This document shows positions 741-41,874 of a stretch of DNA of 48,954 nt, piece by piece. Position 1 is the first letter of the stretch. Each line of letters starts with the position of its first letter. The stretch lies in assembly GCA_964592725.1 (NCBI GenBank), contig CAZQFQ010000003.1, forward strand, positions 1 through 48,954, given 5' to 3'. The position numbers and the translations under genes are program-made. The DNA is from an uncultured Candidatus Saccharibacteria bacterium (GTDB taxonomy: Bacteria > Patescibacteriota > Doudnabacteria > UBA920). Under the pieces are notes generated by a model. It was not told the DNA's origin, made no database searches, and worked only from the letters and a program-made list of their open reading frames with translations.

Positions 741-780
741 ACCAGAACCTATCTTAAAATTATAAATATCCCATACCCAT

Positions 781-1287: not shown

Positions 1288-1316
1288 CACCGGGCTTAGA
1301 CAGCCCTTTAAAAAAT

Positions 1317-3083: not shown

Positions 3084-3108
3084 ACTTTAAAAAGCATCCT
3101 AAATTATA

Positions 3109-3831: not shown

Positions 3832-3918
3832 ACCCCGGCTAAGGTTATCGAAAAAAAGAGACTCGCGCCGTCAATTTGCTTATTTTTTCCAGGTGGAAAA
3901 TTCAATTTCAATTAATTT

Positions 3919-5709: not shown

Positions 5710-5723
5710 ATGATATAATAATA

Positions 5724-5885
5724 AGAACCTATTTTAAAAATAATTTGTAGGCGAAATTACAGGATTTTGAGCGGATTGGCCCTTAACAAATTTTGACGTT
5801 TAGCCGAAGCTAAGCGGAAAAATTTTTAAGGCCAAGACGCCAAAATCCTGGAATTGCAGCCCGAAGGATTTTTAAAATAGGTTCT
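5724..5885 (+). mobile_element. MITE-like full-length palindromic element, copy 1
   Basis: 18-bp perfect termini (AGAACCTATTTTAAAAAT / ATTTTTAAAATAGGTTCT). The conserved core GGATTTTGAGCGGATTGGCCCTTAACAAATTTTGACGTTTAGCCGAAGCTAAGCGGAAAAATTTTTAAGGCCAAGACGCCAAAATCC recurs at 13641-13804 and 14419-14580. Confidence 0.75.
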
Positions 5886-5903
5886 AAGCTAAACTCGACA
5901 AAA

Positions 5904-6551
5904 ATGAGCAAACTTACCCAAAGATATAACTCCATTAGATCGCACAAATTTTTTTACATCCAACTGGCTATAGGGGTTTTATTTTTATCCCTCAGCCTGT
6001 TTTTTAATTATTACGCGCAAGCCTTTACCGCAACCCATGCCAGTAATTCCGTAACCGATATAATTTTAGACCATTTGCCAGCCAAAAATGTCGACGATGT
6101 TTTTCTGGAAGGCATGTTGATTTTTATTGCTTTTGTCACCTTGCTGGCTTTGCATAAACCCAGCCGCATTCCTTTTATTCTTAAAGCCTCCGCCTTATTT
6201 ATCTTTACAAGGGCGATTTTTATCACCTTAACCCATTTAGCGCCCCCCGCCCATATGACCACCGTCCATTCGGTAAGCTTTTTGGAAAGGTTGATCTCCG
6301 GTTCCGGGGATGATTTATTTTTTTCCGCTCATACCGGCTTTCCGTATTTAATGGCATTGATATTTTGGGAGACAAAATATCTGCGCTGGCTGTTTCTGGC
6401 GACATCCATATTTTTTGCCGGAGCAGTGCTTTTGGGGCATTTGCACTACTCAATAGACGTCTTCTCCGCTTTCTTTATAACCTACGGCATTTTCAACATC
6501 GCTAAGCGCTGGTTCAAAAAAGATTACGAATTTTTTTACTACCACAAATGA
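5904..6551 (+). CDS. integral membrane protein, PAP2_C / sphingomyelin-synthase-like phosphatase fold
   Basis: 215 aa with about 6 TM helices. Motifs SAHTGFP and GHLHYSIDVF match the C2/C3 motifs of the PAP2 superfamily. Confidence 0.5.
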   Translation: MSKLTQRYNSIRSHKFFYIQLAIGVLFLSLSLFFNYYAQAFTATHASNSVTDIILDHLPAKNVDDVFLEGMLIFIAFVTLLALHKPSRIPFILKASALFIFTRAIFITLTHLAPPAHMTTVHSVSFLERLISGSGDDLFFSAHTGFPYLMALIFWETKYLRWLFLATSIFFAGAVLLGHLHYSIDVFSAFFITYGIFNIAKRWFKKDYEFFYYHK

Positions 6552-6637
6552 CAAACTTTTAAAAAATTTAAGGCTTGCCCAGTTGATTTTTTTTTGGATT
6601 TTTGATAAAATAGCTTAAGTTAAACAAGCAAATATCC

Positions 6638-6723
6638 GGGCAGGTGGTAGAGCGGTCAATTACAACAGACTGTAAATCTGTCGCCTTCGGGCTACGCAGG
6701 TTCGAATCCTGCCCTGCCCACCA
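6638..6723 (+). tRNA. tRNA-Tyr (GUA), type II with long variable arm, CCA encoded
   Basis: Acceptor GGGCAGG/CCTGCCC, anticodon loop CTGTAAA, variable arm CGCCTTCGGGCTAC, T arm GCAGG-TTCGAAT-CCTGC, then A-CCA. Confidence 0.9.
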
Positions 6724-6822
6724 GTAAAATCCACCAAATAATTTGGTGGCTTTTACTTTAAGTGTGATTTTGACTTTTATATAATAAAGTGCAAAAATAA
6801 GGGTAGTTTTCCAAATATATAT

Positions 6823-7287
6823 ATGGACGCAAACGACCCATTTAAAAAGTTACTTTCGGAAGCAAAAGAGTTTTATCAAAGCATTGATAAAACAAGATGC
6901 CCTGCTTTAAATGCTGAGGTGCATTTTACATCAGAGGGTTTTCATCACCTCCGTTACGACCGCTCTCTCAAAGAAAGAAGCAAACTGGAACGCAGAAATA
7001 AACTATCCCATATCGCCGCTGCGGTTGAGACAATAAAGTTATCATCGACTATCCAGGAATACCGAGTTACTTTAGAAGCCGCGGGCTTAAAAGATGCTCA
7101 AGGACTGCGTTCGGCAGTTAAAGTTAATTACTATGCATTTTGGGCCGTCTTGAATAAAAAAACTAGAGTGAAAGCGATTGTAAGGCAGGTTGAAAATGGC
7201 CAATATAACTTTTGGAGTGTAATGCCTTACTGGACCGAGATCAATGGACATAAAGTATTTGGTTCCGTTCGGATGACCGACGAATAG
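6823..7287 (+). CDS. hypothetical protein (weak resemblance to BECR-fold phage/toxin nucleases)
   Basis: 154-aa ORF, the first gene of the AT-rich segment after tRNA-Tyr. The pattern HFTSEGFHHLRY...VKAIVRQVENGQYNFWSVMP is reminiscent of Barnase/EndoU/RelE-like toxin domains. This is pattern resemblance only. Confidence 0.3.
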   Translation: MDANDPFKKLLSEAKEFYQSIDKTRCPALNAEVHFTSEGFHHLRYDRSLKERSKLERRNKLSHIAAAVETIKLSSTIQEYRVTLEAAGLKDAQGLRSAVKVNYYAFWAVLNKKTRVKAIVRQVENGQYNFWSVMPYWTEINGHKVFGSVRMTDE

Positions 7288-8591: not shown

Positions 8592-8777
8592 ATGTGGTTA
8601 TTGGTTATAATTGCCATCATCTTGTTTGTTCTTTACGAGTGGAGAAAAGAGAAAGCTTCTGAAAAACACGCTGACTGGATGATGAAGAATGACCCGGAAA
8701 TTCAAAAAGATAACGCCACCTTGAGAGGGCTTGGGTTTGATGAATATGGAAACCCCCTTTCAAAAAAATCCAAATAG
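8592..8777 (+). CDS. small single-pass membrane protein
   Basis: 61 aa with N-terminal TM helix MWLLVIIAIILFVLY. Last ORF of the AT-rich island. Confidence 0.4.
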   Translation: MWLLVIIAIILFVLYEWRKEKASEKHADWMMKNDPEIQKDNATLRGLGFDEYGNPLSKKSK

Positions 8778-8858
8778 TTTGCCTGATTCGTGGTTATAAT
8801 GGACTTTTGATATTTGCAATTTCCATTCCAACTTTGTCAAACAGTGCCCACCAAAATT

Positions 8859-8886
8859 AAAAAGCCAAGCGTTAGCTTGGCTTTTT
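8859..8886. terminator. bidirectional rho-independent terminator
   Basis: AAAAAGCCAAGC-gtta-GCTTGGCTTTTT, with A and T tracts on both sides. Lies between convergent genes. Confidence 0.7.
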
Positions 8887-8998
8887 AATTTTGTACCGAG
8901 CGAACATGAGCTTGTCGAAGGAGAATCGAGGGGCATAAAAACACAACCACGCACCGAGGACGATGCGTGGTTTTTACATTAATGCATTATTACGGGTA

Positions 8999-9436
8999 CT
9001 ACAATATCTCCACGGAAATTTCGGGCAGGCCTTTTGGGGGTTGGGGACCGATGGCGACAAAGGCTAGCTTAACCTGAATTTGCGGATTGGTTTTGGCCAG
9101 CTTGGCCTTGGCTTTGTGCAAAGATTCCACAATTACGGCTTTTTCTTCGGCCGGAACCTGTGGTGCGCCTTTTAACGCAAACCCGCCGCATTCCGCGTGG
9201 CCGACAATGCCGAATTTCGTAACATGGTGGGCATTGATTGAAACCTTTTCAAACAGCCACATGAATGTATCCTTATGCTCCGGCTCGTGGGGCTCTGTCA
9301 TCCACAAAGGCGGACCGGCGTAGTTCAAACAATCGTAATCGCCTGGCTCAAAGCCAAAGGCGTTGGCGATCTTTATCGAGTTTTCGCCCTGCAACCTGCA
9401 ATCCATGCAGTTGATAAGCAATGAGTTACAATGCAT
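8999..9436 (-). CDS. beta-class carbonic-anhydrase-like protein (short form)
   Basis: 145 aa with CMDCR (CxDxR) and HAECGG (HxxC) zinc-ligand motifs in the order expected for beta-CA. Shorter than typical beta-CAs. Confidence 0.5.
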   Translation of the reverse strand: MHCNSLLINCMDCRLQGENSIKIANAFGFEPGDYDCLNYAGPPLWMTEPHEPEHKDTFMWLFEKVSINAHHVTKFGIVGHAECGGFALKGAPQVPAEEKAVIVESLHKAKAKLAKTNPQIQVKLAFVAIGPQPPKGLPEISVEIL

Positions 9437-9536
9437 CTTTTTCTATTTTTCCTTCTTTGGGATTTTGCAACCCCAAAAGTTTAGCTTATTTTTTGCTTAA
9501 TGTCAATGAAATTACAATAATTTTCAGAAAAATTTT

Positions 9537-9583
9537 ACCCTCTCTGCCGCCCTTTCGGCGGCATCTCCCCCAGAGGGGGAGAG
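9537..9583 (+). repeat. CTCTCCC/GGGGGAGA hairpin repeat, copy a
   Basis: ACCCTCTCTGCCGCCCTTTCGGCGGCATCTCCCCCAGAGGGGGAGAG. An inverted copy lies at 42949-42994 and a related insert lies in prfB at 34937-35002. Confidence 0.7.
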
Positions 9584-9601
9584 CTCCGCGGTTATCCTTA
9601 A

Positions 9602-10882
9602 TTAAGTGCCCTCTTGCCAACTCGCCAAATACTTTTTTTGCGCTGGGGTTAATACATCAATTTTTACCCCAAGCGCCGCCAACTTTAATCGCGACACTTT
9701 TTGGTCTATTTCTTTGGGCACTTCGTAAACCTTATTTTCCAATTGCCGATGATGTTTAACCAGCCACTCGCAGGTCAGCGCCTGGTCCGCAAAAGACATA
9801 TCCATAACCGCCGACGGGTGCCCTTCGGCCGCGCCCAAATTCATCAATCTTCCTTCGGCGATTAAATACAGTTTACGTCCGTCCTTCATCGTAAATTCTT
9901 CCAGAGAATTCCTGACCTGCCTTTTGCCTTTTGCCTCTTTTGCTAATTGCTCCCCATTAATCTCCACATTAAAGTGCCCGCTGTTGCCCAAAATCGCGCC
10001 GTCCTTCATCAGTTCAAAATGCGCCGCTGTTAAAACGTCTTTATCGCCGGTAGCCGTTAAAAATATATCGCCGATTTTTGCGGCCTGCGCCATTGGCATA
10101 ACACCAAAACCGTCCATAGCCGCCTGCAACGCCGGCAGGGGATCCACCTCGGTAACGATTACCCTCGCACCCAAACCTTTAGCGCGCAAAGCTATACCCT
10201 TGCCGCAATACCCGTATCCGGCCACAACCAAAATTTTTCCGGCCAACAAAATATTGGTGGCGCGCAACAAGCCGTCCATTGTCGACTGTCCGGTGCCGTA
10301 GTAATTGTCAAACATATGCTTAGTCGGGGTATCGTTTACGGCCACAACCGGATATTTTAAGGCGCCGTCTTTGGCCATGGCTTTTAATCTGATAACTCCG
10401 GTGGTGGTCTCTTCCTGGCCGGCCCAAACGGTTTTTAACAGCTCTTTGCGCCCGGAATGGATAAGCGAAATTACGTCGGCGCCGTCGTCTATGGTAATTT
10501 GCGGTTTGAAATCTAAAACCTGATTCAGTGCCCAATAATAATCTTTATTGGAAATATGCTTCCAGGCAAACACGTTAATGCCGCTCTCGGCCAAAGCCGC
10601 GGCAACGTCGTCCTGCGTAGACAGGGGATTGCTGCCGCACAAAGCCACTTTCGCCCCGCCGGCTTTTAAGGCGTGCATCAGCACCGCGGTTTCTTTGGTT
10701 ACGTGGAGGCACGCGGCAATTGTTATGCCTTCAAATGGTCGGCGCTTTTTTCCGCCGGAGGCGGGTCCGCCTTTGGCGGAAAAATCTTTGGCGATAATCC
10801 GCAAAACCGGCATTTCCCGTTCGGCTAAAGCGATATTTATATGCCCTTGTTTAGCAAGCTTGATGTCTTTTACTTTGTGCAT
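9602..10882 (-). CDS. ahcY: adenosylhomocysteinase
   Basis: 426 aa with family-typical blocks: ITIDDGAD, EETTTG, AVNDTPTKHMFDNYYGTGQS, NAD-binding VAGYGYCGKG, GHFNVEI. Contains a repeat-derived insert, SAKGGPASGGKKR. Confidence 0.95.
   Translation of the reverse strand: MHKVKDIKLAKQGHINIALAEREMPVLRIIAKDFSAKGGPASGGKKRRPFEGITIAACLHVTKETAVLMHALKAGGAKVALCGSNPLSTQDDVAAALAESGINVFAWKHISNKDYYWALNQVLDFKPQITIDDGADVISLIHSGRKELLKTVWAGQEETTTGVIRLKAMAKDGALKYPVVAVNDTPTKHMFDNYYGTGQSTMDGLLRATNILLAGKILVVAGYGYCGKGIALRAKGLGARVIVTEVDPLPALQAAMDGFGVMPMAQAAKIGDIFLTATGDKDVLTAAHFELMKDGAILGNSGHFNVEINGEQLAKEAKGKRQVRNSLEEFTMKDGRKLYLIAEGRLMNLGAAEGHPSAVMDMSFADQALTCEWLVKHHRQLENKVYEVPKEIDQKVSRLKLAALGVKIDVLTPAQKKYLASWQEGT
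10746..10784. repeat. TTTTCCGCC..GGCGGAAAA double-hairpin repeat inserted in frame in ahcY
   Basis: TTTTTTCCGCCGGAGGCGGGTCCGCCTTTGGCGGAAAAA. Other copies at 27291-27325, 30698-30734 and 47804-47838. Confidence 0.75.
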
Positions 10883-10959
10883 TTTGTGGTTGATTATTTA
10901 TTAAGCTTTAAAAGTATAACAAAAATTCGCGATTGTAGCGAGAAAAAAATCTCTAAACT

Positions 10960-11072
10960 CCGGCATCATCCTGATCCTGTCATCCGTAAAACCAAGCGAG
11001 CGAAGGATCTCTTCTTCTTCGAGATTCTTCGGCCTTCAAAAGTATGCTATTAGGGCCTCAGAATGACGCCGG
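10960..11072. repeat. GTCATCCTGAG...CGAAGGATCTC palindromic element
   Basis: Termini CCGGCATCATCCTGA / CTCAGAATGACGCCGG and centre CGAAGGATCTC..GAGATTCTTCG. Same family as 17351-17452, 30767-30891 and 40048-40148. Confidence 0.7.
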
Positions 11073-11082
11073 ACGCAAAATA

Positions 11083-11592
11083 TCATTTTGCCAGTTTCCT
11101 GGTTAAATAATTATACTCGTGCCAAATTATGATTACGAACACGGCATCAAATATAGTAAGCGCCGAAAGCAAAAGTGAATGGTCAAGCGCAATCCTAAAA
11201 ATCTGGTACAGCATAAACGAGCACAAAACGCCGATGGCAACCAAATAAGCCCAAGTTTTTTCTTTTATCAGTCCTAAAACCAGGAGTAAATTTATAATGC
11301 CGTGGGCTAAAATGTAAAGACCGGCGAAATCTTTTGTTCCGGCTGTCAAATGGTTAAGATACTGATGCGCGTAAGCCAGAAAAAAATCCTGCGGGTCCTC
11401 AAGTTGTTCGCCGCGCGACAACCTGTTTAAAATCACGGTTAAAGCACTCGGGCTTAAATAAACAAGCAAAAAACCGCTGACAGTTTCCACTAAGCCAGTG
11501 AGGGTTTTTATGCAGATGCTGATAATAAAGAATTCGTGCCAGTATTTTTCTTTTAACCTCATATTTTTAAAAATATTTAGGGATGTTCTCAC
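11083..11592 (-). CDS. DUF2127-like integral membrane protein
   Basis: 169 aa with 4 TM helices. The start may be Met11 (MRLKEKYWHEFF..). Pattern typical of DUF2127. Confidence 0.5.
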   Translation of the reverse strand: MRTSLNIFKNMRLKEKYWHEFFIISICIKTLTGLVETVSGFLLVYLSPSALTVILNRLSRGEQLEDPQDFFLAYAHQYLNHLTAGTKDFAGLYILAHGIINLLLVLGLIKEKTWAYLVAIGVLCSFMLYQIFRIALDHSLLLSALTIFDAVFVIIIWHEYNYLTRKLAK

Positions 11593-14387: not shown

Positions 14388-14418
14388 ATATATATCCATC
14401 AATCTCCCAATATCAACT

Positions 14419-14580
14419 AGAAGCTATCTTAAAAATCCTTCGGGCTGCAATTCCAGGATTTTGGCGTCTTGGCCTTAAAAATTTTTCCGCTTAGCTTCGG
14501 CTAAACGTCAAAATTTGTTAAGGGCCAATCCGCTCAAAATCCTGTAATTTCGCCTACAAATTATTTTTAAGACAGCTTCT
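14419..14580 (-). mobile_element. MITE-like palindromic element, copy 3 (inverted relative to copies 1 and 2)
   Basis: Its reverse complement is identical to copy 1 except for about 12 bp at each terminus. There is one terminal mismatch, which is a G-T pair only in the orientation of copies 1 and 2. Confidence 0.75.
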
Positions 14581-14584
14581 AATA

Positions 14585-20733: not shown

Positions 20734-20830
20734 GGACAGGACTTGCCCGCCCGCTTACCGATGAGAGGTCGGCTGAGGCCGGCCCCTACAAATATGACAT
20801 CAGACCTTTTTGTTGGTATAATAACAGCAA

Positions 20831-22126
20831 ATGGAACGGCTTTATGAGACCAAAAGAAACACAAAAATTGCCTTAGGCCTGATTATTGCCTTATGTTTAG
20901 GCTTGACTTTCAACTTATCGAACGCGGACACCGCATCCGACCAGCTAACCGCCAGCCAGCAAAAATTACTGCAAATCAATCAGCAAATAAGGGGCTATCA
21001 ACAGCAAGTCGCCGACACCCAGGCTAAATCCAGTTCTTTAAAAAATGAGGTTTCAATTTATAACGACCAAATTTCCTCGCTGGAGCTGGAAATTGAGGCT
21101 AATCAAACCCAAATTGAAGATGCCAATTTACAAATTACGCAACTCCAGCAGTTAATCGACGCAAAGAGCCAGGACATTTCGGATAATAAAAACGTACTCG
21201 GACAGTTGATAGTCGAGCTCAACGAAGACGACGACCAATACGCCCTGCAAACCAGCGTAGGCAGTAATAGCCTTTCAGATTTTTTGGACCAAATCCAATA
21301 TACTCAAAGTCTGCAAAATAAAATTTATCAGCTGGTGGAAAAAATCAAAAATCTAAAAACCCAGCTCCAAACACAGCAGAATAATCTGCAAATACAAATA
21401 ACCCAGTTAAACCAATCGCAGGATCAGTTGCAGGTCAGCCAAAATTCTTTAACAACCATACGGGACCAAAAGCAACAGCTGTACAATGAAACGCGCGGCC
21501 TGGAAGTAAATTTCCAAAAACTTTTGGCTTCCAGCCAGCAGGACGCCGTTGATTTGCAAAAAGAAATCCAGCAGCTGGATTCACAGGCCACGGCCAAAGT
21601 AGGTTCAAACGCGATTACAGGAACACCGGGGCTTCTGGCTTGGCCGATAGACGGAATCATTACCCAGGGTTACGGCAACACCGGTTTTACCGCTTTGGGA
21701 TACGATTTCCACAACGGTATTGATATTGCCGGTCCGCCCGGGCAGCCGATTTACGCCGCGGCCGACGGCGACGTTTTATATACCGATGAGAGCGACGCGG
21801 ACTTTGGCAACTGGGTGGCGCTTAAAAGCACAATTACCACCGCCAAAGGTCCGGCAAAAATTGTGACGCTTTACGCGCATATGGAAAGTTTCAAAGTCCA
21901 GGTCGGCCAGCATCTTTCACAGGGGGATTTAATCGGTTACGAAGGCAACACCGGTAATACGACGCGTTTACTTTACGGCCCCGAAAGGGGATACCACCTG
22001 CATTTTGGCGTTTATGATGCCACGGGCTTTGGGGTAAGCCAGGGAGCATATACCAAAGTTTACGGCGATTATAAGGTGCCTTATGGATATACTTACAATC
22101 CTCTTGACTTTTTAAGCCCGGATTAA
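20831..22126 (+). CDS. secreted coiled-coil protein with C-terminal M23 (LytM-type) peptidoglycan endopeptidase domain
   Basis: Signal/TM segment, about 230 aa of Gln-rich coiled coil, then HNGIDIAGPPGQPIYAAADG and HLHFGVY M23 motifs. EnvC-like layout. Confidence 0.85.
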   Translation: MERLYETKRNTKIALGLIIALCLGLTFNLSNADTASDQLTASQQKLLQINQQIRGYQQQVADTQAKSSSLKNEVSIYNDQISSLELEIEANQTQIEDANLQITQLQQLIDAKSQDISDNKNVLGQLIVELNEDDDQYALQTSVGSNSLSDFLDQIQYTQSLQNKIYQLVEKIKNLKTQLQTQQNNLQIQITQLNQSQDQLQVSQNSLTTIRDQKQQLYNETRGLEVNFQKLLASSQQDAVDLQKEIQQLDSQATAKVGSNAITGTPGLLAWPIDGIITQGYGNTGFTALGYDFHNGIDIAGPPGQPIYAAADGDVLYTDESDADFGNWVALKSTITTAKGPAKIVTLYAHMESFKVQVGQHLSQGDLIGYEGNTGNTTRLLYGPERGYHLHFGVYDATGFGVSQGAYTKVYGDYKVPYGYTYNPLDFLSPD

Positions 22127-22154
22127 AATTAAATTCTACTTTTATAAATCACTG

Positions 22155-23006
22155 ATGCCGATCAAATTCAAAACCCTTTTTCTCTCCCTGCTCCTGGTTG
22201 AACTCCTTTTTGCCTATGCTCCGGCCTTTGCCCAAAGCCCGTCGCCGGATTACAGCAAAGCCGGGGTATCCACGCAAATTGAAACCTATCTCTGCAATCC
22301 CACCGATACGACCGGGGGGATCCTGTATAAATGCATTAACCAAATTTACAAATTTGCCATAGTGGTGGCCAGCGTTATGGGCGTGTTCTTTATTGTCATT
22401 GCCGGCTATGTTTATATGTCGGCCGAGGGCAACAGCGAATCCACAACCAAAGCCAAGGACATCTTAGTTAGCACCATCACCGCTTTGGTCATCCTGTTTG
22501 GCGGCTACGCCTTGCTCAACACCATCAACCCCGACCTGGTCCAATTCCACGGCAATACCTTACAGCCGGTGAATATTGCGGCGCCGGCAGTAACAACGGG
22601 AATTACTACGCCTTTAGCAGGTTACAATATTGGTGCATATGATGCCGGTGAGCCCCAACAAGCCGTTGCCGTAACCTCCATATATAATAGACTTTTGGCA
22701 TTAAATCTGTCTACGGCAGATCAAATGACGCAGTATATGAATAGCTCAGCCCAAGGTATCGGAAAAAGCGGGAGTCCAATTACCGGGCAAATGGTTCTAA
22801 GTGCCTCTTCTGCCACAAATGTTGACCCTAAAATGGTTATGGCGATTATGGAAGAAGAAAGCCATTATGGAAGCGATGGGGCAAGCACCGCAGTTGCTAA
22901 TTTTAACCCGGGAAATATACAATCAGGAAATTCTGACATAAATTACGGTAATTGGCAGGCGGGAGTAAATGCGGTAGCTAATTGGCTTAATGGCCATAGG
23001 GCTTGA
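22155..23006 (+). CDS. TrbC/VirB2-type pilin-like N-terminal module fused to a GH73/lysozyme-like C-terminal domain
   Basis: Signal peptide, Cys pair, two TM helices (FAIVVASVMGVFFIVIAGYVYM; TALVILFGGYALL) and NPDLV. The C-terminus VDPKMVMAIMEEESHYG..NFNPGNI..NYGNWQAGVNAVANWL fits a glucosaminidase-type muramidase pattern. Confidence 0.55.
   Translation: MPIKFKTLFLSLLLVELLFAYAPAFAQSPSPDYSKAGVSTQIETYLCNPTDTTGGILYKCINQIYKFAIVVASVMGVFFIVIAGYVYMSAEGNSESTTKAKDILVSTITALVILFGGYALLNTINPDLVQFHGNTLQPVNIAAPAVTTGITTPLAGYNIGAYDAGEPQQAVAVTSIYNRLLALNLSTADQMTQYMNSSAQGIGKSGSPITGQMVLSASSATNVDPKMVMAIMEEESHYGSDGASTAVANFNPGNIQSGNSDINYGNWQAGVNAVANWLNGHRA
22167..22597 (+). repeat. 431-bp exact direct repeat, copy 1 (5' module of the pilin-like genes)
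   Basis: Base-for-base identical to 23438-23868 by direct comparison of the printed sequence. Confidence 0.9.
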
Positions 23007-23419
23007 ATTTTATGACCAACAAATTAAAAATAACAATTATAGCCCTTAGTGTTTTAATATTTTTGGGGATTTTAGGAATCTTCCTTGTTTTGATATCGAA
23101 CAAAAATAACTCTGCGCAGACTGCACAAACTTATTCTTCTTATACTTTTTCGGCCACGGAATTTGACAAAATCGTTACAGAAAAAGTAACGGCCAATGGG
23201 CAAAACATACCGATAAACTCTGATAATTTAAATCAATACGGGATTGTGACCTTTAACACCCCCCATGACATTATGTGGGTTTTGTGCCCTAATGGCTATA
23301 AACAAAGCAATCCGACCAGCTCAACTAACAACAGACCCGACCTGGTCCAGGATGTAGGATCTACTATTGATATCACAGAAGGCGTTCAAAACAATTTAAC
23401 TGTAACTTGCAGCAAATAA
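23003..23419 (+). CDS. small membrane-anchored protein between the two pilin-like genes
   Basis: 138-aa ORF. ATG at 23012 is the likely start (MTNKLKITIIALSVLIFLGILGIFLVLI). Extracytoplasmic domain has 2 Cys and no known motif. Confidence 0.5.
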   Translation: MNFMTNKLKITIIALSVLIFLGILGIFLVLISNKNNSAQTAQTYSSYTFSATEFDKIVTEKVTANGQNIPINSDNLNQYGIVTFNTPHDIMWVLCPNGYKQSNPTSSTNNRPDLVQDVGSTIDITEGVQNNLTVTCSK

Positions 23420-23425
23420 ATCTTT

Positions 23426-24301
23426 ATGCCCCAAACCTTCAAAACCCTTTTTCTCTCCCTGCTCCTGGTTGAACTCCTTTTTGCCTATGCTCCGGCCTTT
23501 GCCCAAAGCCCGTCGCCGGATTACAGCAAAGCCGGGGTATCCACGCAAATTGAAACCTATCTCTGCAATCCCACCGATACGACCGGGGGGATCCTGTATA
23601 AATGCATTAACCAAATTTACAAATTTGCCATAGTGGTGGCCAGCGTTATGGGCGTGTTCTTTATTGTCATTGCCGGCTATGTTTATATGTCGGCCGAGGG
23701 CAACAGCGAATCCACAACCAAAGCCAAGGACATCTTAGTTAGCACCATCACCGCTTTGGTCATCCTGTTTGGCGGCTACGCCTTGCTCAACACCATCAAC
23801 CCCGACCTGGTCCAATTCCACGGCAATACCTTACAGCCGGTGAATATTGCGGCGCCGGCAGTAACAACAGTAACTCCGGTCACAACCGCATGCAACCAAA
23901 CTTTTGGAGGTAGCGCATCTGTGGGATGTAGCGGATCAAGCTGCGTGAATGTATCATCTTATACTTCTAGCCATGACTGCAGTAGTAATGGGGGAGTATG
24001 TCTGCTTTCCCAGCAAGCCGCTCAAAAAGCCCAAAATCTCATCAATAATTTTAACCAAGCGGGGGCCGGTTGTACTTTAAAAATATCAGCAGCAATTGAA
24101 AGCGCCACAGGACCCAGTATTTCTTCTTGTCATAGTAACGGAACTTGCGCTGATTTTAACCTAATACCCTACAATTCCACCTGTGCACAGGCATTTTATA
24201 ATGCGGCTCAAGCCGCTGGCGCAGTTTCACTTTTGGATGAATATGTCCCAGCTTGCGTAGCCGGCTCGACCACAGGGGGAAATATCCACGTAAATTTTTA
24301 A
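23426..24301 (+). CDS. TrbC/VirB2-type pilin-like N-terminal module fused to a Cys-rich LAS/M15-like (D-Ala-D-Ala peptidase fold) C-terminal domain
   Basis: The N-terminal 148 aa are identical to 22155-23006 from residue 5 onward. The C-terminus has SSCHSNGTCADFNL (SxHxxGxAxD) and a terminal GGNIHVNF, consistent with a zinc peptidase of the LAS/M15 type. Confidence 0.5.
   Translation: MPQTFKTLFLSLLLVELLFAYAPAFAQSPSPDYSKAGVSTQIETYLCNPTDTTGGILYKCINQIYKFAIVVASVMGVFFIVIAGYVYMSAEGNSESTTKAKDILVSTITALVILFGGYALLNTINPDLVQFHGNTLQPVNIAAPAVTTVTPVTTACNQTFGGSASVGCSGSSCVNVSSYTSSHDCSSNGGVCLLSQQAAQKAQNLINNFNQAGAGCTLKISAAIESATGPSISSCHSNGTCADFNLIPYNSTCAQAFYNAAQAAGAVSLLDEYVPACVAGSTTGGNIHVNF
23438..23868 (+). 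repeat. 431-bp exact direct repeat, copy 2
   Basis: Identical to 22167-22597. Confidence 0.9.
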
Positions 24302-24470
24302 TTTTATATGCCAAAAAGCAGATCACACAGCCACTTCTTAAAAAAGGAAGCGGTTTTTTTGATTTTAATTAATCAATGCCGCAATTAAAAAGGCTTTATA
24401 AATATATGAAGTCGCATAACCTACATTGAGCGCCCTCATAGATATCTAATTTTCCACAACTCCCTATAAA

Positions 24471-24502
24471 AATAAGCCATCCTTTATAAGGGTGGCTTAT
24501 TT
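24471..24502. terminator. bidirectional stem-loop terminator
   Basis: AATAAGCCATCC-tttataa-GGGTGGCTTATT, flanked by A-rich sequence on the left and T-rich sequence on the right. Lies between convergent genes. Confidence 0.6.
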
Positions 24503-32239: not shown

Positions 32240-33157
32240 CTATGTCTTAAGGTATTTTCGAATCGCCAGCATCGACGAAATTACGGACAGCAACAGCGCC
32301 AAAACAAAAAGGATCAAAACCAAATAGCCAAAATGAAACAGGCTATTGGAATAAATATTCAGTTGCGGGTTTATATAGGCAACTACTTTGGGCAAAACTT
32401 TGTAATAAACCGGCACAAACAAAGCGGCCGTAATAATCGTCGAAAAAATGCTGTACAACAGGCTCTCCATTAAAAACGGCCCGCGGATATACCAGTTGGT
32501 GGCGCCCACCAGCCGCATAATTTCCACTTCTTCTTTGCGGTTATAAATTGTCAGGGTGATGGTATTATATATAACCAAAATGGCGATGAGAGCGAAAATC
32601 GCAACCAAAGCCAAGCCAAAAGTCACCACAAATTTTAGAATCGTATTTAAACGTTCAATAACCACGCGGTTGTCTTCAAAATTTACTTTGTCGATAAAAC
32701 TCTTGTATTGGTCCGATTCCAAATTTTGCGCTACTCCCGGATAGTCGCTCAAATTGTATGTTTTTATGTGCAAGGTCGCCGGCAACGGATTTTGGGTCAG
32801 TTCGTTTAAAGATTCCGTTATAAGCGGGTCATTTTGGTGCGCCGCTTTAAAATTATCAAAAGCCTGCTCGGCGGAAACGTAATCTATTTCCTTAATCCTC
32901 GGATCATGGGCTATGTCATCTTTAATTTTTGTGATTTGGTCGTCGGCCAAACCGATTTTAAAGTACACGCTAATGTCCACGGTATTTTGGATGGTGTGGA
33001 TGGAATAGTTGGTTAAAATAAATACCGTAAAAAGCGAGGAAAAAATTACCAGCGTCACGGTCATAACAATGGTCGCGGCCGCAGACAGCCAAAAATTCCG
33101 CCAAAAATTGACGAAACCGATTTTGATAACGCGTAGGAATGAGATTGAGTCCATCAT
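32240..33157 (-). CDS. ftsX: cell-division ABC permease FtsX
   Basis: 305 aa with an N-terminal TM helix, an extracytoplasmic domain and 3 C-terminal TM helices. Conserved EEVEIMRLVGATNWYIRGPF. Directly downstream of ftsE. Confidence 0.9.
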   Translation of the reverse strand: MMDSISFLRVIKIGFVNFWRNFWLSAAATIVMTVTLVIFSSLFTVFILTNYSIHTIQNTVDISVYFKIGLADDQITKIKDDIAHDPRIKEIDYVSAEQAFDNFKAAHQNDPLITESLNELTQNPLPATLHIKTYNLSDYPGVAQNLESDQYKSFIDKVNFEDNRVVIERLNTILKFVVTFGLALVAIFALIAILVIYNTITLTIYNRKEEVEIMRLVGATNWYIRGPFLMESLLYSIFSTIITAALFVPVYYKVLPKVVAYINPQLNIYSNSLFHFGYLVLILFVLALLLSVISSMLAIRKYLKT

Positions 33158-33253
33158 AAGTTAATTGACAAAATTTAAAAAATTTAAATAATTGACAAAA
33201 TTAGGCTGCAGTTTATTTTTGTCAATTTTGTTCAATTATGTCATTTTTGTTCA

Positions 33254-33931
33254 TTACAACTTATATCTTCCCTTCTCCTGTTGCAAAGTAATTTTTCCGT
33301 CCTCGATTGTGACGACCCGCTTGTTAATTTTGTTAACGAGATCGGACGCGTGGGTGGCTAAAATTACCGTGGTGCCGAGCTGGTTGATTTTTAATAAAAG
33401 GTCCAAAACTTCCGCCGCGTTGACCTCGTCCAAATTACCGGTCGGCTCGTCGGCTAAAAGAAGAACCGGGCGATGAGACAGGGCACGGGCAATGGCCACA
33501 CGCTGTTTTTCCCCGCCGGACATTTCTTCCGGGAAACTGTCTCTTTTGTGCAACAGCCCGACCAATTCCAAAATTTTTGGCACCTCGCTTTGGATTTTGT
33601 CGGCATTGTGCCCGCAAACTTCCATGGCAAAAGCCACATTTTCAAAAGCGGTGCGCCGCGGTAAGAGCTTCATATCCTGAAACACTATGCCGATTTTCCG
33701 CCTTAAATAAGGCAAATCCGATTTCCTGACCTGGGAAATATCTATGTCGTCTATCAAAATTTTCCCGCCGTCAATTTGCTCTTCGCCAATAATCAGCTTA
33801 AACAAAGTAGTTTTTCCCGCTCCCGAAAGCCCGACCAAAGAAATAAACTCGCCGTGATGCACCTGCAAATTCACGCCGTCTAGAGCCTTGTTGTCCTGAT
33901 ATTGTTTTACTACGTTTTCGAACTTTATCAT
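33254..33931 (-). CDS. ftsE: cell-division ABC ATPase FtsE
   Basis: Walker A GLSGAGKTT, signature MSGGEKQR, Walker [13 protein letters not shown]. Confidence 0.92.
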   Translation of the reverse strand: MIKFENVVKQYQDNKALDGVNLQVHHGEFISLVGLSGAGKTTLFKLIIGEEQIDGGKILIDDIDISQVRKSDLPYLRRKIGIVFQDMKLLPRRTAFENVAFAMEVCGHNADKIQSEVPKILELVGLLHKRDSFPEEMSGGEKQRVAIARALSHRPVLLLADEPTGNLDEVNAAEVLDLLLKINQLGTTVILATHASDLVNKINKRVVTIEDGKITLQQEKGRYKL

Positions 33932-36583: not shown

Positions 36584-37063
36584 TCACTTTTTCTTTTGGT
36601 ATACGGCAAAAGCAAATTTAAAATTTCTTTCTTCCTGGATTTTATCCCACTGGCTCCAATCGATTTTTACAAAATATGCGTCGCCCGGATAATTGCCGTG
36701 GATATGGGTCATATACATTTTTTCGGCATAAGGCAAAGCGAGCTTAAAAATCTGCTCGCCGCCGATAATATATAAATCTTCATTTTTCAAAGCTTCAAAA
36801 GCCTGCTCCAGGCTGCCGAACACCAACACTCCCTGGGGCACTTTATAGTCGGCCTGCCTTGTAATAACCACATTTTTCCGCCCCGGCAGGGGCTTGCCCA
36901 GGCGCTTGACTATGGAATCGTAGGTCTTTCTGCCCATGACCACAGTCTTGCCCAAAGTGATTTCCTTAAACCGCTTGAGGTCTTCGGGAAAATACCAGGG
37001 CAGTTCATTGTCGCTGCCGATAACCAAATTGTCCGCCACTGCCACCGGGCCAAGAATAATCAT
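36584..37063 (-). CDS. folA: dihydrofolate reductase
   Basis: VIGSDNELPWYFPEDLKRFKEITLGKTVVMGRKTYDSI, LYIIGGEQIF. ATGA overlap with the upstream gene. Confidence 0.92.
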   Translation of the reverse strand: MIILGPVAVADNLVIGSDNELPWYFPEDLKRFKEITLGKTVVMGRKTYDSIVKRLGKPLPGRKNVVITRQADYKVPQGVLVFGSLEQAFEALKNEDLYIIGGEQIFKLALPYAEKMYMTHIHGNYPGDAYFVKIDWSQWDKIQEERNFKFAFAVYQKKK

Positions 37064-37443
37064 AAATATTGTTTCAAAAAAATTAAGATATCGCCAACTG
37101 ACGCATAGCGTATGATTTTAAAATTTGGATCTTGTATGCCCAGAATCATACGGGTAACTTTGGCGTCTTTTTGAGCTACTGCCAAAACTTTTTTTCCTAA
37201 ATTTAATCCCGTCGCGATTTCAAATCCCAAACCGGTGGAAGGATATGAGACTTCCGCCAAAAGCAGATCGCAATTTTTTACGCAACCAATGTCATGCCTA
37301 AAAACGGCCTCGGCATTACCATTAATCAAACCCAAATATTCTGAAACTTCGTGATCTTGGCTTAATTTTGACCTAAGCTTTGCCATTTCCGATTTGTATT
37401 CTTCGGGGGCATGGGTTAGGGAGTTTGCCAGATATATTTTCAT
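37060..37443 (-). CDS. nucleoside 2-deoxyribosyltransferase / Rcl(DNPH1)-like protein
   Basis: 127 aa from MKIYLANSL... The ATG at 37443 overlaps the tmk stop as ATGA. ..CDLLLAEVSYPSTGLGFEIATGLNLGKKV fits the family core. The longer ORF-track call (to 37542) overlaps tmk and was not used. Confidence 0.5.
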   Translation of the reverse strand: MKIYLANSLTHAPEEYKSEMAKLRSKLSQDHEVSEYLGLINGNAEAVFRHDIGCVKNCDLLLAEVSYPSTGLGFEIATGLNLGKKVLAVAQKDAKVTRMILGIQDPNFKIIRYASVGDILIFLKQYL

Positions 37444-38186
37444 GTTCTTGGCTTTATATCTTTTAAAGCTATCCTCCTGACCAGCTCCCAGACTTTGTTG
37501 TGGATTTGTTCGGGGGACATCAGCTCCTTGCCGGCCATGCATTCCACCAGTTTGGTGTTGGGGAAAAGTTTGGCGATTTGCAAGTAAACTTTTTCCGCGT
37601 TTTTTAAATGATTGAGGTCGGCCTCATGCAGGTCGCGCTTTTTACCGTTGGCGTATTTTCTTTCATCAGCCGATTTTAAATCCACCAATTTCTGCGCCAC
37701 TTCCGCCGGCACGTGCAAAATGATATTTAAGTCGGGTTTGGGGATGCCAAAAATGTTGTATTCAAGATTGTCCAGCCATTTAAAAAACTTCAGCCGGTCC
37801 AAATCATCGGCAATTTTGCCTCCCTGGTGTCCGGCGTTGGCCGTAACATAGCGATTGGAAATTACGATTTTCCCTTCGTTTAGCCAATTGCGGATTTTAA
37901 AGCTGGCGTCAAACCTGTCAATCGCGTAAAAGATAGACGCGGCTTCGGGTCCAACCTGCCCGTATTTTCCGTTTAAATATTCTTCAATAAGCCCCGCGGA
38001 TTTTGTGCCGTACTGCGGAAAGTCCGTCATCTCCAAAGGATATCCGTTCTTTTTTAACTCTTCTACAAGCAATTTAGTTTGTGTGGCCTTGCCAGTGCCG
38101 TCAGTGCCGTCAATAACTATAAACCTGCCTTTTTGGGGGGAAGATTTGAATTTTTTACTTTTACCAAAGGATAATTTGTTGAGCAT
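37440..38186 (-). CDS. tmk: thymidylate kinase
   Basis: P-loop FIVIDGTDGTGKATQ, a DRF-type motif (AIDRFD) and a lid region. Confidence 0.9.
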   Translation of the reverse strand: MLNKLSFGKSKKFKSSPQKGRFIVIDGTDGTGKATQTKLLVEELKKNGYPLEMTDFPQYGTKSAGLIEEYLNGKYGQVGPEAASIFYAIDRFDASFKIRNWLNEGKIVISNRYVTANAGHQGGKIADDLDRLKFFKWLDNLEYNIFGIPKPDLNIILHVPAEVAQKLVDLKSADERKYANGKKRDLHEADLNHLKNAEKVYLQIAKLFPNTKLVECMAGKELMSPEQIHNKVWELVRRIALKDIKPRT

Positions 38187-38192
38187 ATAAAA

Positions 38193-38975
38193 CTAACCCC
38201 GTTCCTTTTGGGCTTTATTAATGGCGGCTAACTGTTCAATTTCGAATTTTACTATTTCATAGGCCTTATGTTTTCTATAATCAGTTTCATAATGTGCTTC
38301 AAGAATTTGACCCTTGAAATCCATTTGGACATCTCTGTTTAATCGGCCACTCAGCTCTGTAAACAATTTCTGTTCATATTTGTCTGTCACCTGGCCATCA
38401 ACAAATTCAACTTTTTTGGATTCGACTTGGCCCATAATTTCAGCCCTGCGCGAACCCACTATAAAATCCGGAGACGGGACATACAACCCGGGTTTTAGAA
38501 CAACCTTATCTGCAAAATTTGTTTGATTAATGCCATAAGCCAATACAATACCGTTCGCGTTGGCCCACCATCTTAAATTCCTTTCCGCATAGTCTAAGCC
38601 CGAATAGCCGGAATGATATTTTAACCTGGCTTCAGTTGGAACCCACCAATCCACCCCTCCCTCAAAGGGTTGCTCCGAAATAAATTTTTCGTCGGTGACC
38701 ATAACGTCCACGTCTTTATGTGCGTCCAAATCAGCAATAGTATTACGCGGTTTCCATATTGCTTCCGCAACTCCACCGATTAACAATCCAACTGATTTTC
38801 TTTGTTTTAATAATTCGTCCGCTATTTTCATTCCTTGCAAGCCACGGACGGCATTAGGAAATTCACCATGGCGCAATTCCTGCCTAAAAGACAATAAAGT
38901 CTCCAGCGCCAATTTCTGTTTATGGTTAAACTTTTGTTCCAGCCTGTTTTGCTGTCGAAACTCAAATCCCGGCAT
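38193..38975 (-). CDS. hypothetical protein, possible minimal nucleotidyltransferase fold
   Basis: 260 aa. GLLIGGVAEAIW...HKDVDVMV resembles the G[SG]...DxD signature of pol-beta-type NTases. Embedded in the nucleotide operon. Confidence 0.3.
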   Translation of the reverse strand: MPGFEFRQQNRLEQKFNHKQKLALETLLSFRQELRHGEFPNAVRGLQGMKIADELLKQRKSVGLLIGGVAEAIWKPRNTIADLDAHKDVDVMVTDEKFISEQPFEGGVDWWVPTEARLKYHSGYSGLDYAERNLRWWANANGIVLAYGINQTNFADKVVLKPGLYVPSPDFIVGSRRAEIMGQVESKKVEFVDGQVTDKYEQKLFTELSGRLNRDVQMDFKGQILEAHYETDYRKHKAYEIVKFEIEQLAAINKAQKERG

Positions 38976-38976
38976 T

Positions 38977-39528
38977 TTAATTTTGTAGTTTACTTATAAT
39001 TTCATCCACTTTCTTATAAAGCTCCCCTAAACTTCCCGTGTTATCTATTCTAAAATCCGCCTGCTTGCCCAGTTCGGGAATTTCCAGTTCGGTGCGGCAG
39101 GTTTCGTGCTCTTTAAAATGCTCAAAATCCATTTGCGCGTCATCGGTTTTGCCGCTTTTTCCCCCGCGCCGGTTTTTATAGCGCTCAAATCGCGTCTCAA
39201 TCGGCGCCGTAATATAAATAATTTTTGCTCCCCAGGATTTTACAATGTCCAGCTCGTCCATTCGAATGCCGTTAACCACTCTATAGCCGGCCATAGAGCG
39301 TTTTACTCTTGGCTCCAAAGCGTTAATTAAGACGTGCTCGCCAAAAACTTCGCGAAGCCCCAGACCTAAGTCTATTTCATTTTTTCTGGAAATTTCCAAA
39401 TTCAATTCTTCTAAAATCGCGTCTAAAATGTGGCTAAAACGAAAATGCGAGGCGTTATATTTTTCCGCCATATAATCGGCTACCGTGTCTTTTCCCGCAA
39501 GTTTTTCTCCAACCAGACCTATTATCAT
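38977..39528 (-). CDS. P-loop kinase, phage-type dNMP kinase-like
   Basis: MIIGLVGEKLAGKDTVADYM.. (GxxGxxxAGKDT P-loop). 183 aa, 1 nt upstream of the next gene. Confidence 0.5.
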   Translation of the reverse strand: MIIGLVGEKLAGKDTVADYMAEKYNASHFRFSHILDAILEELNLEISRKNEIDLGLGLREVFGEHVLINALEPRVKRSMAGYRVVNGIRMDELDIVKSWGAKIIYITAPIETRFERYKNRRGGKSGKTDDAQMDFEHFKEHETCRTELEIPELGKQADFRIDNTGSLGELYKKVDEIISKLQN

Positions 39529-39593
39529 ATGTTAAACAATAAATTTCTACCAATTTCCTAATTTCGTGAGGCCGCAGGCCGAACAAATATCCA

Positions 39594-40034
39594 TTAATTC
39601 TGATATCCACCGGTGCTCCCAATCCCCCCACGATCGACATCGCGCAAACTGTCCGCCTCTTCCCACCGCGCCTGCTCGGTTCCGATGAATACGCCCTGCG
39701 CCAGACGCTCACCTTTTTTAACTTCTACGGGGCGGGAAGTAAAATTATGGACAATTATATGGACTTCATCATTAGGTCCGGCATAGTCCGGATCCACGAC
39801 TCCAATGCCGTTGGCCATTGCCAAACCTTTTTTTAGCGGCAGGCTGCTGCGAGCCGCTATGAGTAAAAAATGGCCTTTAGGGGCGGCAATTACCAATCCT
39901 GTGGGTATTTTTGCCACTTCACCCGGAGCTATGGTTATATCGATTGATGAAGCAATGTCAAAGCCGGCCGATTCGGAGGTGTGATATTTGGGAAGCTCAA
40001 CGTCTTTGGTTAATCGCTTAATTTTGGCTTTCAT
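39594..40034 (-). CDS. dut: dUTP diphosphatase (trimeric dUTPase)
   Basis: All five motifs: AGFDI, ARSS, GVVDPDYAGP, RLAQ, RGGIGSTG. Confidence 0.92.
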   Translation of the reverse strand: MKAKIKRLTKDVELPKYHTSESAGFDIASSIDITIAPGEVAKIPTGLVIAAPKGHFLLIAARSSLPLKKGLAMANGIGVVDPDYAGPNDEVHIIVHNFTSRPVEVKKGERLAQGVFIGTEQARWEEADSLRDVDRGGIGSTGGYQN

Positions 40035-40047
40035 AGGTATATCTCAC

Positions 40048-40148
40048 GGGCGTCATCCTGAGGAAGTGCATCCGACCGAAGGATCTCTTTACCGATTTGA
40101 GATCCTTCGCCCGCTTAGTTTTGCCGATGACGGGCTCAGGATGACGCC
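40048..40148. repeat. GTCATCCTGAG...CGAAGGATCTC palindromic element
   Basis: GGGCGTCATCCTGAGGAAGTGCATCCGACCGAAGGATCTC..GAGATCCTTCG..CTCAGGATGACGCC. Supplies the last codons of 40136-40696. Confidence 0.75.
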
Positions 40149-40696
40149 AGGTTGGTTAATACTTGATCGATTTTAGTAAACAACTCCTCCCTGCTCCCTT
40201 CGTTCACAATCGTCCAGTCCGCGCGCGCAATCGGTCCGGCCTGGTGGAGATTTTCAATTTGAGAATAATCGCGCGAAGCCAGCTCTCCCGGAGTCAGCGG
40301 CCGCACCGGCCGTTGCTCCATACGGGCGGTCCTGATTTTTGGCGATGCGTAAATTGCCAAAACTTTAAAACTCTCGCCAAATTGCTTTTTTACTTCCAAA
40401 TATTCTTCCCAGCTGTATAAACTTTCCACGATAACATTTGACGATTTAAATAATTCCTTAATCTTCGGCATATTAGCAACAGCCATTGCCCCGAGACCGT
40501 CTTTGTCGCGAAATTCCTCCCGCACTTCCCTCTCTCCGGCTTCCCCGGGTTTTCCCCGCCGCGCGGCCTCGTCTATAACCGCCTGCCCAAAATAAACTTT
40601 CGGCCAGCCGGTCTTTTTTAACAAATATTGCACAACTTCGGTTTTCCCGGCTCCGGGCAGACCGACTACTGCGAGAATAATTTTTTTCATAATCAT
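40136..40696 (-). CDS. P-loop nucleotide kinase (dephospho-CoA-kinase/UPF0200-like)
   Basis: ILAVVGLPGAGKTEVVQYL P-loop. 186 aa. ATGA overlap with the dCMP deaminase stop. Confidence 0.5.
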   Translation of the reverse strand: MIMKKIILAVVGLPGAGKTEVVQYLLKKTGWPKVYFGQAVIDEAARRGKPGEAGEREVREEFRDKDGLGAMAVANMPKIKELFKSSNVIVESLYSWEEYLEVKKQFGESFKVLAIYASPKIRTARMEQRPVRPLTPGELASRDYSQIENLHQAGPIARADWTIVNEGSREELFTKIDQVLTNLASS

Positions 40697-41181: not shown

Positions 41182-41187
41182 CTACTA

Positions 41188-41853: not shown

Positions 41854-41874
41854 AACTTTGTAATTTTAATAATA

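Follow-up and report, generated by a model that had tools for sequence, protein, structure and literature searches.

Pilin modules carrying exchangeable putative peptidoglycan-hydrolase heads at a fixed chromosomal site in Doudnabacteria

Results

Two pilin fusions with identical modules and different heads

The window analysed here is a stretch of 48,954 nucleotides (nt) from an uncultured bacterium deposited as Candidatus Saccharibacteria and placed by GTDB in the Doudnabacteria (Patescibacteriota; assembly GCA_964592725.1, contig CAZQFQ010000003.1, positions 1 to 48,954 of the forward strand). It contains a locus of four open reading frames (ORFs), in which a gene for a coiled-coil M23 peptidase is followed by two genes that join one and the same pilin module to different putative peptidoglycan-hydrolase heads. 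An initial annotation, made from the sequence alone, had proposed four consecutive plus-strand genes here, and all four are present, as are the motifs quoted in support of them (AIMEEESHYG, NFNPGNI, SCHSNGTCAD...IHV and the loop AGYVYMSAEGN...KAK). The genes, modules and predicted heads are as follows.

20831 to 22126, plus strand: ORF1, 431 amino acids (aa), coiled-coil M23 peptidase
22155 to 23006, plus strand: ORF2, 283 aa, PF18895 pilin module with a truncated GH73-like head
22167 to 22597, plus strand: repeat copy 1, the pilin module of ORF2, 431 nt, 100% identical to copy 2
22620 to 23003, plus strand: predicted GH73-like/lysozyme-like head of ORF2 (aa ~156-283), truncated, from weak profile matches, with E235-S236
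23012 to 23419, plus strand: ORF3, 135 aa from ATG or 138 aa from an alternative TTG at 23003, with an N-terminal transmembrane segment
23426 to 24301, plus strand: ORF4, 291 aa, PF18895 pilin module with a putative LAS/Hedgehog-fold zinc-peptidase head
23438 to 23868, plus strand: repeat copy 2, the pilin module of ORF4, 431 nt, 100% identical to copy 1
23891 to 24298, plus strand: predicted LAS/Hedgehog-fold zinc-peptidase head of ORF4 (aa ~156-291), Cys-rich, from profile and Foldseek matches and invariant residues

The N-terminal modules of ORF2 and ORF4 match PF18895 (T4SS_pilin, the pilin family of type IV secretion systems, T4SSs) with 28.3 and 27.3 bits, respectively, at a gathering score of 26.6. 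Both modules also match TrbC/VirB2 (PF04956) weakly (E=0.014 for ORF2), and relatives reach E=7e-6 to 1.5e-13. PF18895 is likewise matched by 43 of 43 orthologues at the locus and by 102 of the 119 representatives of the wider family described below. At the DNA level the two modules agree at 431 of 431 positions, and up to their divergence at residue 149 the two proteins differ at residues 3-4 only, a degree of sharing that is far beyond chance.

Within the module, a signal peptide (aa 1-26, ending in AFA before Q) is followed by an ectodomain stretch with C47 and C60, a transmembrane hairpin and an INPDL motif. AlphaFold2 (AF2) models give the hairpin helices as residues 56-89 and 94-124 with a short loop between them. 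In the family alignment C60 is invariant and C47 nearly so; G84, Y87, M88, S89, G92, E95, K99, A100, K101, N125, P126 and D127 are invariant, and they include the helix-joining loop, an invariant YMSAxGNxExxxKAK, and the equally invariant INPD motif. As judged from this alignment, the conservation of hairpin and loop exceeds what a plain membrane anchor should need. Because short pilin-only members of the family end just past the INPDL motif, the heads are appended to a whole pilin and not to a fragment. ORF2 and ORF4, at 283 and 291 aa and with enzyme heads of 130-140 aa, are accordingly not small stand-alone pilins; in ORF2 the linker from INPDL to the head covers aa ~131-155. After removal of the signal peptide both ends of the hairpin would lie outside and the head would therefore be extracytoplasmic, a location with which the conserved Cys pairs and the Cys-rich heads agree. 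The TrbC/VirB2-type pilin that had been suggested for the N-terminal half of ORF2 is thus supported by a PF18895 score above the gathering threshold and by the modelled two-helix hairpin. An ordinary signal anchor or lipoprotein was considered for the N-module and rejected: the pilin threshold is passed, there is no lipobox, the pilin is complete and the loop is invariant.

The ORF2 head resembles GH73 enzymes

Taken singly, the ORF2 head gives weak matches over aa 214-280 to Glucosaminidase PF01832 (16.2 bits at a cut-off of 30.2, E=0.017) and to SLT (E=0.026). At family level the signal is stronger: 20 of 24 relatives of this head match PF01832 at E<=0.05 (best 5e-8), and the family profile matches the catalytic motif 'QTES' of MltC, which holds the SLT-type catalytic glutamate, with E=6e-4. 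An acid always stands before the invariant S236, and in ORF2 it is E235. The AF2 model of the head is all-helical, with a predicted local distance difference test (pLDDT) score of ~90. Single-sequence searches of the PDB with ORF2 and ORF4 gave chance matches only. On these profile matches, the ORF2 head is predicted to be a truncated GH73-like, lysozyme-like domain and a putative glycan-cutter with E235 as its acid. The GH73/lysozyme-like head of the initial annotation is supported at the level of the family.

The ORF4 head resembles LAS-fold zinc peptidases

The Cys-rich head of ORF4 has no Pfam match and belongs to no curated M15 family; one orthologue at the locus matches HH_signal (PF01085) with E=6e-4. 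A profile built from 19 relatives of the head finds the N-domains of Sonic and Indian hedgehog in the PDB (E=4e-4). The head is modelled with pLDDT values of 85-96, and the top 38 Foldseek matches of this model are all Hedgehog N-domains (probability 1.0, target TM-scores of 0.5-0.63), followed by weak matches to VanXYc, LdcB and MepA. H236, D243 (H-x6-D), E272 and H288 are invariant in the 19 sequences. The Sonic hedgehog (Shh) segment 'LHYEGRAVD' aligns with H236 and D243, and the glutamate of its 'YYES' with E272; in Shh itself, two of the zinc ligands and the catalytic glutamate lie in these segments. Sequence and model together point to a putative LAS-fold zinc peptidase with a zinc site formed by H236, D243 and H288 and accompanied by E272, in agreement with the LAS/M15 signature first read in this domain. 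A word-indexed homologue search with the 143-aa Cys-rich head (23870-24298) returned nothing, even with its parent protein P0002 and 18 relatives in the database, which is a sensitivity gap for compositionally odd domains.

ORF3 accompanies GH73-like heads

ORF3, described initially as a small membrane-anchored protein, does have an N-terminal transmembrane segment; this anchor is followed by a domain of ~95 aa with two Cys that are invariant across homologues, and the domain probably faces outwards. No match was found in Pfam, NCBIfam, PHROGs or the PDB, and the homologue search with ORF3 returned ORF3 itself and one relative only. At the loci described below, an ORF3 homologue lies directly 3' of every GH73-like head (in the window and in L007, L008, L009, L014, L034, L011 and L045), independently of whether that head comes first or second, and one further homologue follows an SLT_3 head (L015). 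No gene of the ORF3 type accompanies LAS, SLT or C39-like heads, or any other head type, in the loci examined. Because the homologues follow GH73-like heads in whatever order the genes stand, ORF3 belongs to the ORF2 head and not to that of ORF4. The simplest reading is that ORF3 is a guard or cis-acting inhibitor of the putative glycosidase head of ORF2; it may instead be a cofactor for the truncated head. A role as immunity protein for the downstream ORF4 head was rejected, as ORF3 tracks the upstream GH73-like head.

ORF1 is an EnvC-like M23 peptidase

ORF1 begins with an N-terminal signal or anchor and continues with a coiled coil of ~220 aa (aa ~33-255, with coiled-coil-type matches at aa 30-255) that draws SMC, EnvC, NlpD and DipM-type matches in profile searches. 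The Peptidase_M23 match in Pfam (PF01551, E=8e-23; aa 293-396, nt 21707-22018) upholds the coiled-coil M23 endopeptidase of the initial annotation. The M23 motifs HNGID, YAHM and HLH (HxxxD and HxH) are complete by direct reading, so the active site is intact. The 382-aa coiled-coil M23 chain 8tzk_E of the PDB, presumably from an FtsEX-EnvC complex, aligns with aa 39-379 (E=1.4e-9), which suggests an EnvC-like architecture along the whole length of ORF1.

The site is fixed and the heads change

A scan of species-representative genomes gave 32 loci of this kind. The record titles of 11 read 'Candidatus Doudnabacteria', and the rest carry other labels of metagenome-assembled genomes, mostly 'uncultured Candidatus Saccharibacteria'. 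The gene order of the window recurs in 31 of the 32: WecG/NUDIX, GltX, coiled-coil M23, the fusion gene or genes, and then NifS and ArfC on the minus strand. These loci carry either a single fusion or two, in some cases together with an ORF3-like gene, and the M23 gene is separated from the first fusion by ~20 nt (median). The N-terminal part is common to all 894 cross-genome protein pairs, with a median identity of 48%; the head is common to 116 of them (13%), and at least seven unrelated head clusters occur at the locus. The constant N-module with swapped C-termini that the initial annotation had seen in two genes is therefore far more general, extending over 31 of 32 loci. Loci with two fusion genes mostly pair a putative glycan-cutter with a putative peptide-cutter, as in these examples.

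Window, L014 and L045: glycan-cutting head GH73-like; peptide-cutting head LAS
L007: glycan-cutting head GH73-like; peptide-cutting head C39-like
L005: glycan-cutting head SLT; peptide-cutting head LAS

L045 comes from a distant lineage. It keeps the site between GltX and NifS (8667-11320) with no M23 gene there; the genes present are for a fusion with a GH73-like head, a homologue of ORF3 and a second fusion, of 439 aa, whose C-terminus has the canonical LAS motifs PHYKGEAVD...FHIH. A phage lysis cassette, with the hairpin as holin and the head as endolysin, was considered for the fusion genes and rejected, as ORF2-ORF4 match no phage family and the chromosomal site is fixed across the class.

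The wider family shows the same design. A homologue search with ORF2 gave 110 proteins, nearly all of them a pilin module with a C-terminal extension; the extensions form at least ten unrelated clusters, which include SLT, SLT_3, M15_4, VanY-like, C39-like and YkuD domains. A library search with the module only matched 9,172 representative clusters at E<=1e-3, and most of the best 150 of these have a length of 280-400 aa and an N-terminal module. The recognisable heads among 119 new representatives are almost all peptidoglycan enzymes: SLT in 10, Peptidase_M15, M15_4, M23 and SLT_3 in 4 each, C39_2 in 3, SGNH/GDSL in 2-3, and Amidase_2 and CHAP in 1 each. The classic form is found in L043 (Microgenomates), with three short pilin-only PF18895 genes near YidC and dnaA. 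In the same locus (15-3812, minus strand; 5809-7168, plus strand) the pilin genes adjoin a gene for a separate, giant wall hydrolase of 1265 aa, which has Amidase_2 and SpoIID domains. Some relatives from the library search, among them P0195 (820 aa), P0173 (555 aa), P0171 and P0192, have 4-8 pilin-module stretches per protein, and they look like polyproteins of tandem pilin modules.

Homogenised modules and a cassette missing from four assemblies

Within genomes that have two fusions, the DNA of the pilin modules is 100% (window), 99.2%, 100% and 98.4% identical, with 83.6% in a fifth (L007). Between genomes the identity is 69-76%, apart from the closely related pair L005/L006 at 90%. The modules thus undergo concerted evolution and are homogenised within genomes, which gives a recombination substrate for the swapping of heads. 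One segment of the window differs between assemblies.

22598 to 23868, plus strand: 1271-nt segment with the ORF2 linker and head, ORF3 and the second pilin module, absent from L001-L004

In L001-L004, four other assemblies of the same population, the M23 gene is followed by one hybrid gene, made up of the ORF2 start, the repeat and the ORF4 head, and then by NifS. On either side of the gap they agree with the window at 99.98-100% identity, except for a divergent 3' end of the M23 gene in L004, and the missing segment corresponds precisely to what would be lost through recombination between the repeats. Either a genuine deletion haplotype or a collapse during assembly could account for the short form. 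Compared with the window at 21799-24431, L004 (ENA k141_382815) is ~81% identical over ~240 nt at the M23 3' end, switches near 22037 and is 100% identical in all that follows, with the cassette deleted; this mosaic suggests that strains have recently exchanged the pilin-hydrolase cassette by recombination.

The converse possibility is that the tandem itself is an assembly artefact, the real genome having one fusion after the M23 gene and the ORF2 head with ORF3 being drawn from another strain or mis-looped. The single-gene form with near-identical flanks in L001-L004 would agree with this, as would a perfect 431-nt repeat, which is longer than typical k-mer sizes. We nevertheless regard an artefact as highly improbable. 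The tandem is contained in the 48,954-nt contig itself, and the junction between the ORF3 end and the second module has its own start codons (MPQT as opposed to MPIK). Two independent short contigs (the 997 nt of P0001, and L044, which ends exactly at 23868) repeat this junction and have the ORF2 head and ORF3 with the repeat on both sides. The same order is also found on single contigs of the relatives L010/L011, L007, L014, L034 and L045. Even if the tandem were an artefact, the finding of module swapping would stand.

Operon signals and other features of the window

The intergenic gaps ORF1-ORF2, ORF2-ORF3 and ORF3-ORF4 are 28, -4 or 5, and 6 nt, and two signals frame the four genes.

20794 to 20822, plus strand: promoter-like site ATGACA-17-TATAAT with a TG extension, a consensus match only (11 of 12 positions)
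24470 to 24502, plus strand: strong terminator-like hairpin, a 15-bp stem followed by a T run, between ORF4 and the convergent NifS gene

ORF1-ORF4 likely form a single operon, with the promoter-like site at its 5' end and the terminator-like hairpin at its 3' end. The promoter-like site ends 8 nt 5' of the ORF1 ATG, and the ORF1 mRNA may be leaderless or nearly so.

Elsewhere in the window, a MacA/MacB-type efflux set occupies the left end (1317-5148, plus strand) and a dense nucleotide-salvage cluster lies on the right at 36584-42717 (minus strand), with genes for DHFR, deoxyribosyltransferase, thymidylate kinase, dNMP kinase, dCTP deaminase and thymidylate synthase. An intergenic element of ~155-165 nt is present in two inverted copies (5721-5886, minus strand; 14418-14583, plus strand) with an almost identical core and the terminal inverted repeats CTAGAAGCTATCTTAAAAAT ... 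ATTTTTAAGACAGCTTCTA. It has no match among Rfam families and could be an element like a miniature inverted-repeat transposable element or a structured small RNA.

Discussion

A proposal for enzyme-headed pilins

Of the explanations that we considered, the best is that the fusions are pilin-borne wall-breaching enzymes tied to a T4SS-like pilin system, in effect a 'VirB2 fused to VirB1-like function'. We put this forward tentatively, as a plausible account that still falls somewhat short of probable. The pilin module would target the enzyme to a T4SS-like pilus machinery, or would be pulled from the membrane by it, and the wall would be opened at the point of pilin insertion or assembly. The breached wall could be the cell's own and, if the modules polymerise, also that of the host at the contact site. 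The GH73-like head would cut glycan and the LAS head peptide, and the two heads together with the M23 peptidase would make up a set of glycosidase and peptidases like that of the VirB1-like hydrolases of monoderm bacteria. Homologous recombination between the modules, whose near-identity within a genome is maintained by gene conversion, would bring about the exchange of heads, and the GH73-like head would travel with ORF3 as a two-gene cassette in which ORF3 guards or inhibits the glycosidase. A bolder form of the proposal, in which Doudnabacteria and by extension many Patescibacteria build a T4SS-type pilus that displays active external peptidoglycan hydrolases on all or some of its subunits and acts as an enzymatically armed filament that drills the host wall where the cells touch, with heads swapped to match host wall chemistry and ORF3 as guard, seems to us doubtful.

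Several observations weigh against the wall-breaching proposal. No T4SS core genes (VirB4, VirB6 and others) are present in the 49-kb window or in any related locus (~12 kb each), and because none lies nearby the link to a T4SS comes from the homology of the N-module. The locus is class-wide, syntenic and flanked by housekeeping genes. With a linker of ~25 residues on a membrane hairpin, the head would get no further than the cell's own wall, unless extraction and polymerisation of the pilin carried it outwards. The EnvC-like ORF1 suits remodelling of the own wall equally well, and FtsX/FtsE genes are found at 32240-33931 (minus strand), about 8-10 kb downstream of the locus. As for the heads, the PF01832 match of ORF2 covers profile positions 4-81 of 123, from which the truncation follows, and most relatives have Asp, not Glu, at the position equivalent to E235. 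The GH73-like assignment comes from sequence profiles, because Foldseek searches of the PDB and of BFVD (viral structures) with the ORF2 model gave no significant match. The H-x-H of LAS enzymes, which is H-L-H in other members, is replaced by N-I-H in ORF4 and its closest relatives.

Alternative explanations

Many of these points are what one would expect if the proteins were the cell's own autolysins, with an EnvC-like M23 peptidase, probably FtsEX-coupled, and one or two tethered hydrolases splitting or remodelling the own wall as the cell grows and divides, and with the pilin hairpin co-opted as a simple anchor. This is the main rival, and we consider it rather unlikely, if deserving of serious attention. 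The housekeeping synteny of the locus in 31 of 32 genomes, mostly Doudnabacteria, the FtsX and FtsE genes of the window and the short linker that holds the head near the own wall all count in its favour. So do the short gaps between M23 and fusion genes (median ~20 nt), which suggest co-transcription, the full-length alignment of ORF1 with 8tzk_E, and the fact that module shuffling is normal for autolysins. It is harder to reconcile with a bond specificity that varies at an orthologous position, where LAS, SLT, GH73-like, C39-like and unknown heads are found; such turnover would be expected if 'any breach will do' or if heads are adapted to a target, and not for a fixed housekeeping cleavage. 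The cassette of ORF2 head and ORF3 moreover appears dispensable within one population, in the distant lineage of L045 the fusion pair persists at a site that has no M23 gene, and the hairpin and loop of the module, itself a complete pilin, are conserved far beyond the needs of an anchor.

The initial annotation had seen here the logic of polymorphic toxin/effector loci with an immunity gene. On such a reading the locus would be directed against competing bacteria, with the pilin module as the constant delivery part, the heads as toxins and ORF3 as immunity protein. Part of that logic stands: the N-terminus is constant and the C-termini are unrelated, homogenised repeats favour head swaps, a small membrane protein is strictly tied to one head type across distant lineages, the cassette of head and ORF3 shows presence/absence polymorphism, and the L004 strain mosaic joins a divergent M23 3' end to an otherwise identical cassette. 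The other part does not, for a partner gene accompanies only GH73-like heads and one SLT_3 head, and none accompanies LAS, SLT or C39-like heads. Orphan cassettes of head and immunity gene were not seen, each genome has one locus at a fixed housekeeping site and not in islands, and peptidoglycan enzymes tethered to the own membrane would be an odd form of toxin delivery. Taken together, we find a toxin/immunity function quite improbable.

Implications

The pilin arrays of T4SS-like systems are essential for the epibiotic life of the one genetically tractable Patescibacterium, and their function is unknown in the field. Many members of this pilin family carry a hydrolase themselves, in a field where VirB1 is mostly 'missing', and the fusions are candidates for the means by which ultrasmall epibionts get through cell walls, be it their own or those of the host. 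They may also be a natural example of a filament subunit that serves as carrier of interchangeable enzymes, which gene conversion keeps swappable. Surveys that count PF18895 matches as plain 'pilins' may include enzyme fusions.

No description of a pilin-enzyme fusion was found in the papers searched, including those that mention PF18895, and the statement that the module-swap architecture was not known as a described system holds for this literature. A literature search for Doudnabacteria together with type IV secretion found nothing, and one Doudnabacteria genome is listed as VirB4-positive. The enzyme-headed pilin design is thus new in the literature searched and made of known kinds of parts; these bacteria may use it to open cell walls.

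Comparison with known systems

Arrays of VirB2-like pilins occur widely among Patescibacteria, in whose genomes VirB1 is mostly absent (PMC12102498, Quinonero-Coronel et al. 2025), and a pilin array is essential in Southlakia epibionticum (PMC10633639, Wang et al. 2023; PMC12857230). The pilins of reported arrays share 25% identity on average and 54% at most (PMC12102498, PMC10633639). The fusions described here resemble these arrays in belonging to PF18895 and in their host, a small-genome member of the candidate phyla radiation. They differ in three respects: array pilins are treated as small proteins, whereas here each pilin has a peptidoglycan-enzyme head of 130-160 aa; the average identity of 25% contrasts with modules that are 100% identical; and the locus occupies a fixed site between GltX-M23 and NifS, not the vicinity of virB4.

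ORF1 resembles the FtsEX-EnvC division modules, which combine a coiled coil with a LytM/M23 domain, in its EnvC architecture over the full length and in the presence of FtsEX in the window. The EnvC of E. coli is catalytically degenerate, whereas ORF1 keeps all M23 catalytic residues, and in place of an amidase partner its downstream partners are the pilin fusions. The ORF4 head is like the LAS/Hedgehog-DD-peptidase enzymes (VanX, VanY and LdcB of M15, MepA, and the Shh N-domain) in fold, in its H...D...H triad and in E272. It differs from them in having no Pfam M15 match, in being nearer to Hedgehog N-domains than to VanY or LdcB, in extra disulfide-rich insertions and in an Asn for the first His of H-x-H.

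The T4SSs of monoderm bacteria have membrane-anchored VirB1-like hydrolases, such as PrgK (pCF10), TraG (pIP501) and CwlT (ICEBs1), and PrgK also has a LytM/M23 domain. Provided that the topology predicted here is right, the two systems share outward-facing, membrane-tethered, wall-breaching enzymes that cut glycan and peptide. The monoderm enzymes are single polypeptides with one plain transmembrane anchor, encoded inside the T4SS operon, whereas here the activities are split over several genes, each on a complete pilin module, and the head types are swapped between species. The 'evolved' subunits of type VI secretion systems (T6SSs), namely VgrG, Hcp and PAAR proteins with C-terminal effectors, offer a second parallel; VgrG-3 of V. 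cholerae, for example, has the immunity protein TsiV3. There, too, a filament-type structural subunit is joined to a C-terminal peptidoglycan-degrading domain, and a small partner gene lies directly 3', here for one head type. The machine and the fold are others, most heads here have no partner, and delivery through a filament is hypothetical in the present system. The monoderm VirB1-like enzymes and the evolved T6SS subunits would be the closest functional counterparts of the enzyme-headed pilins.

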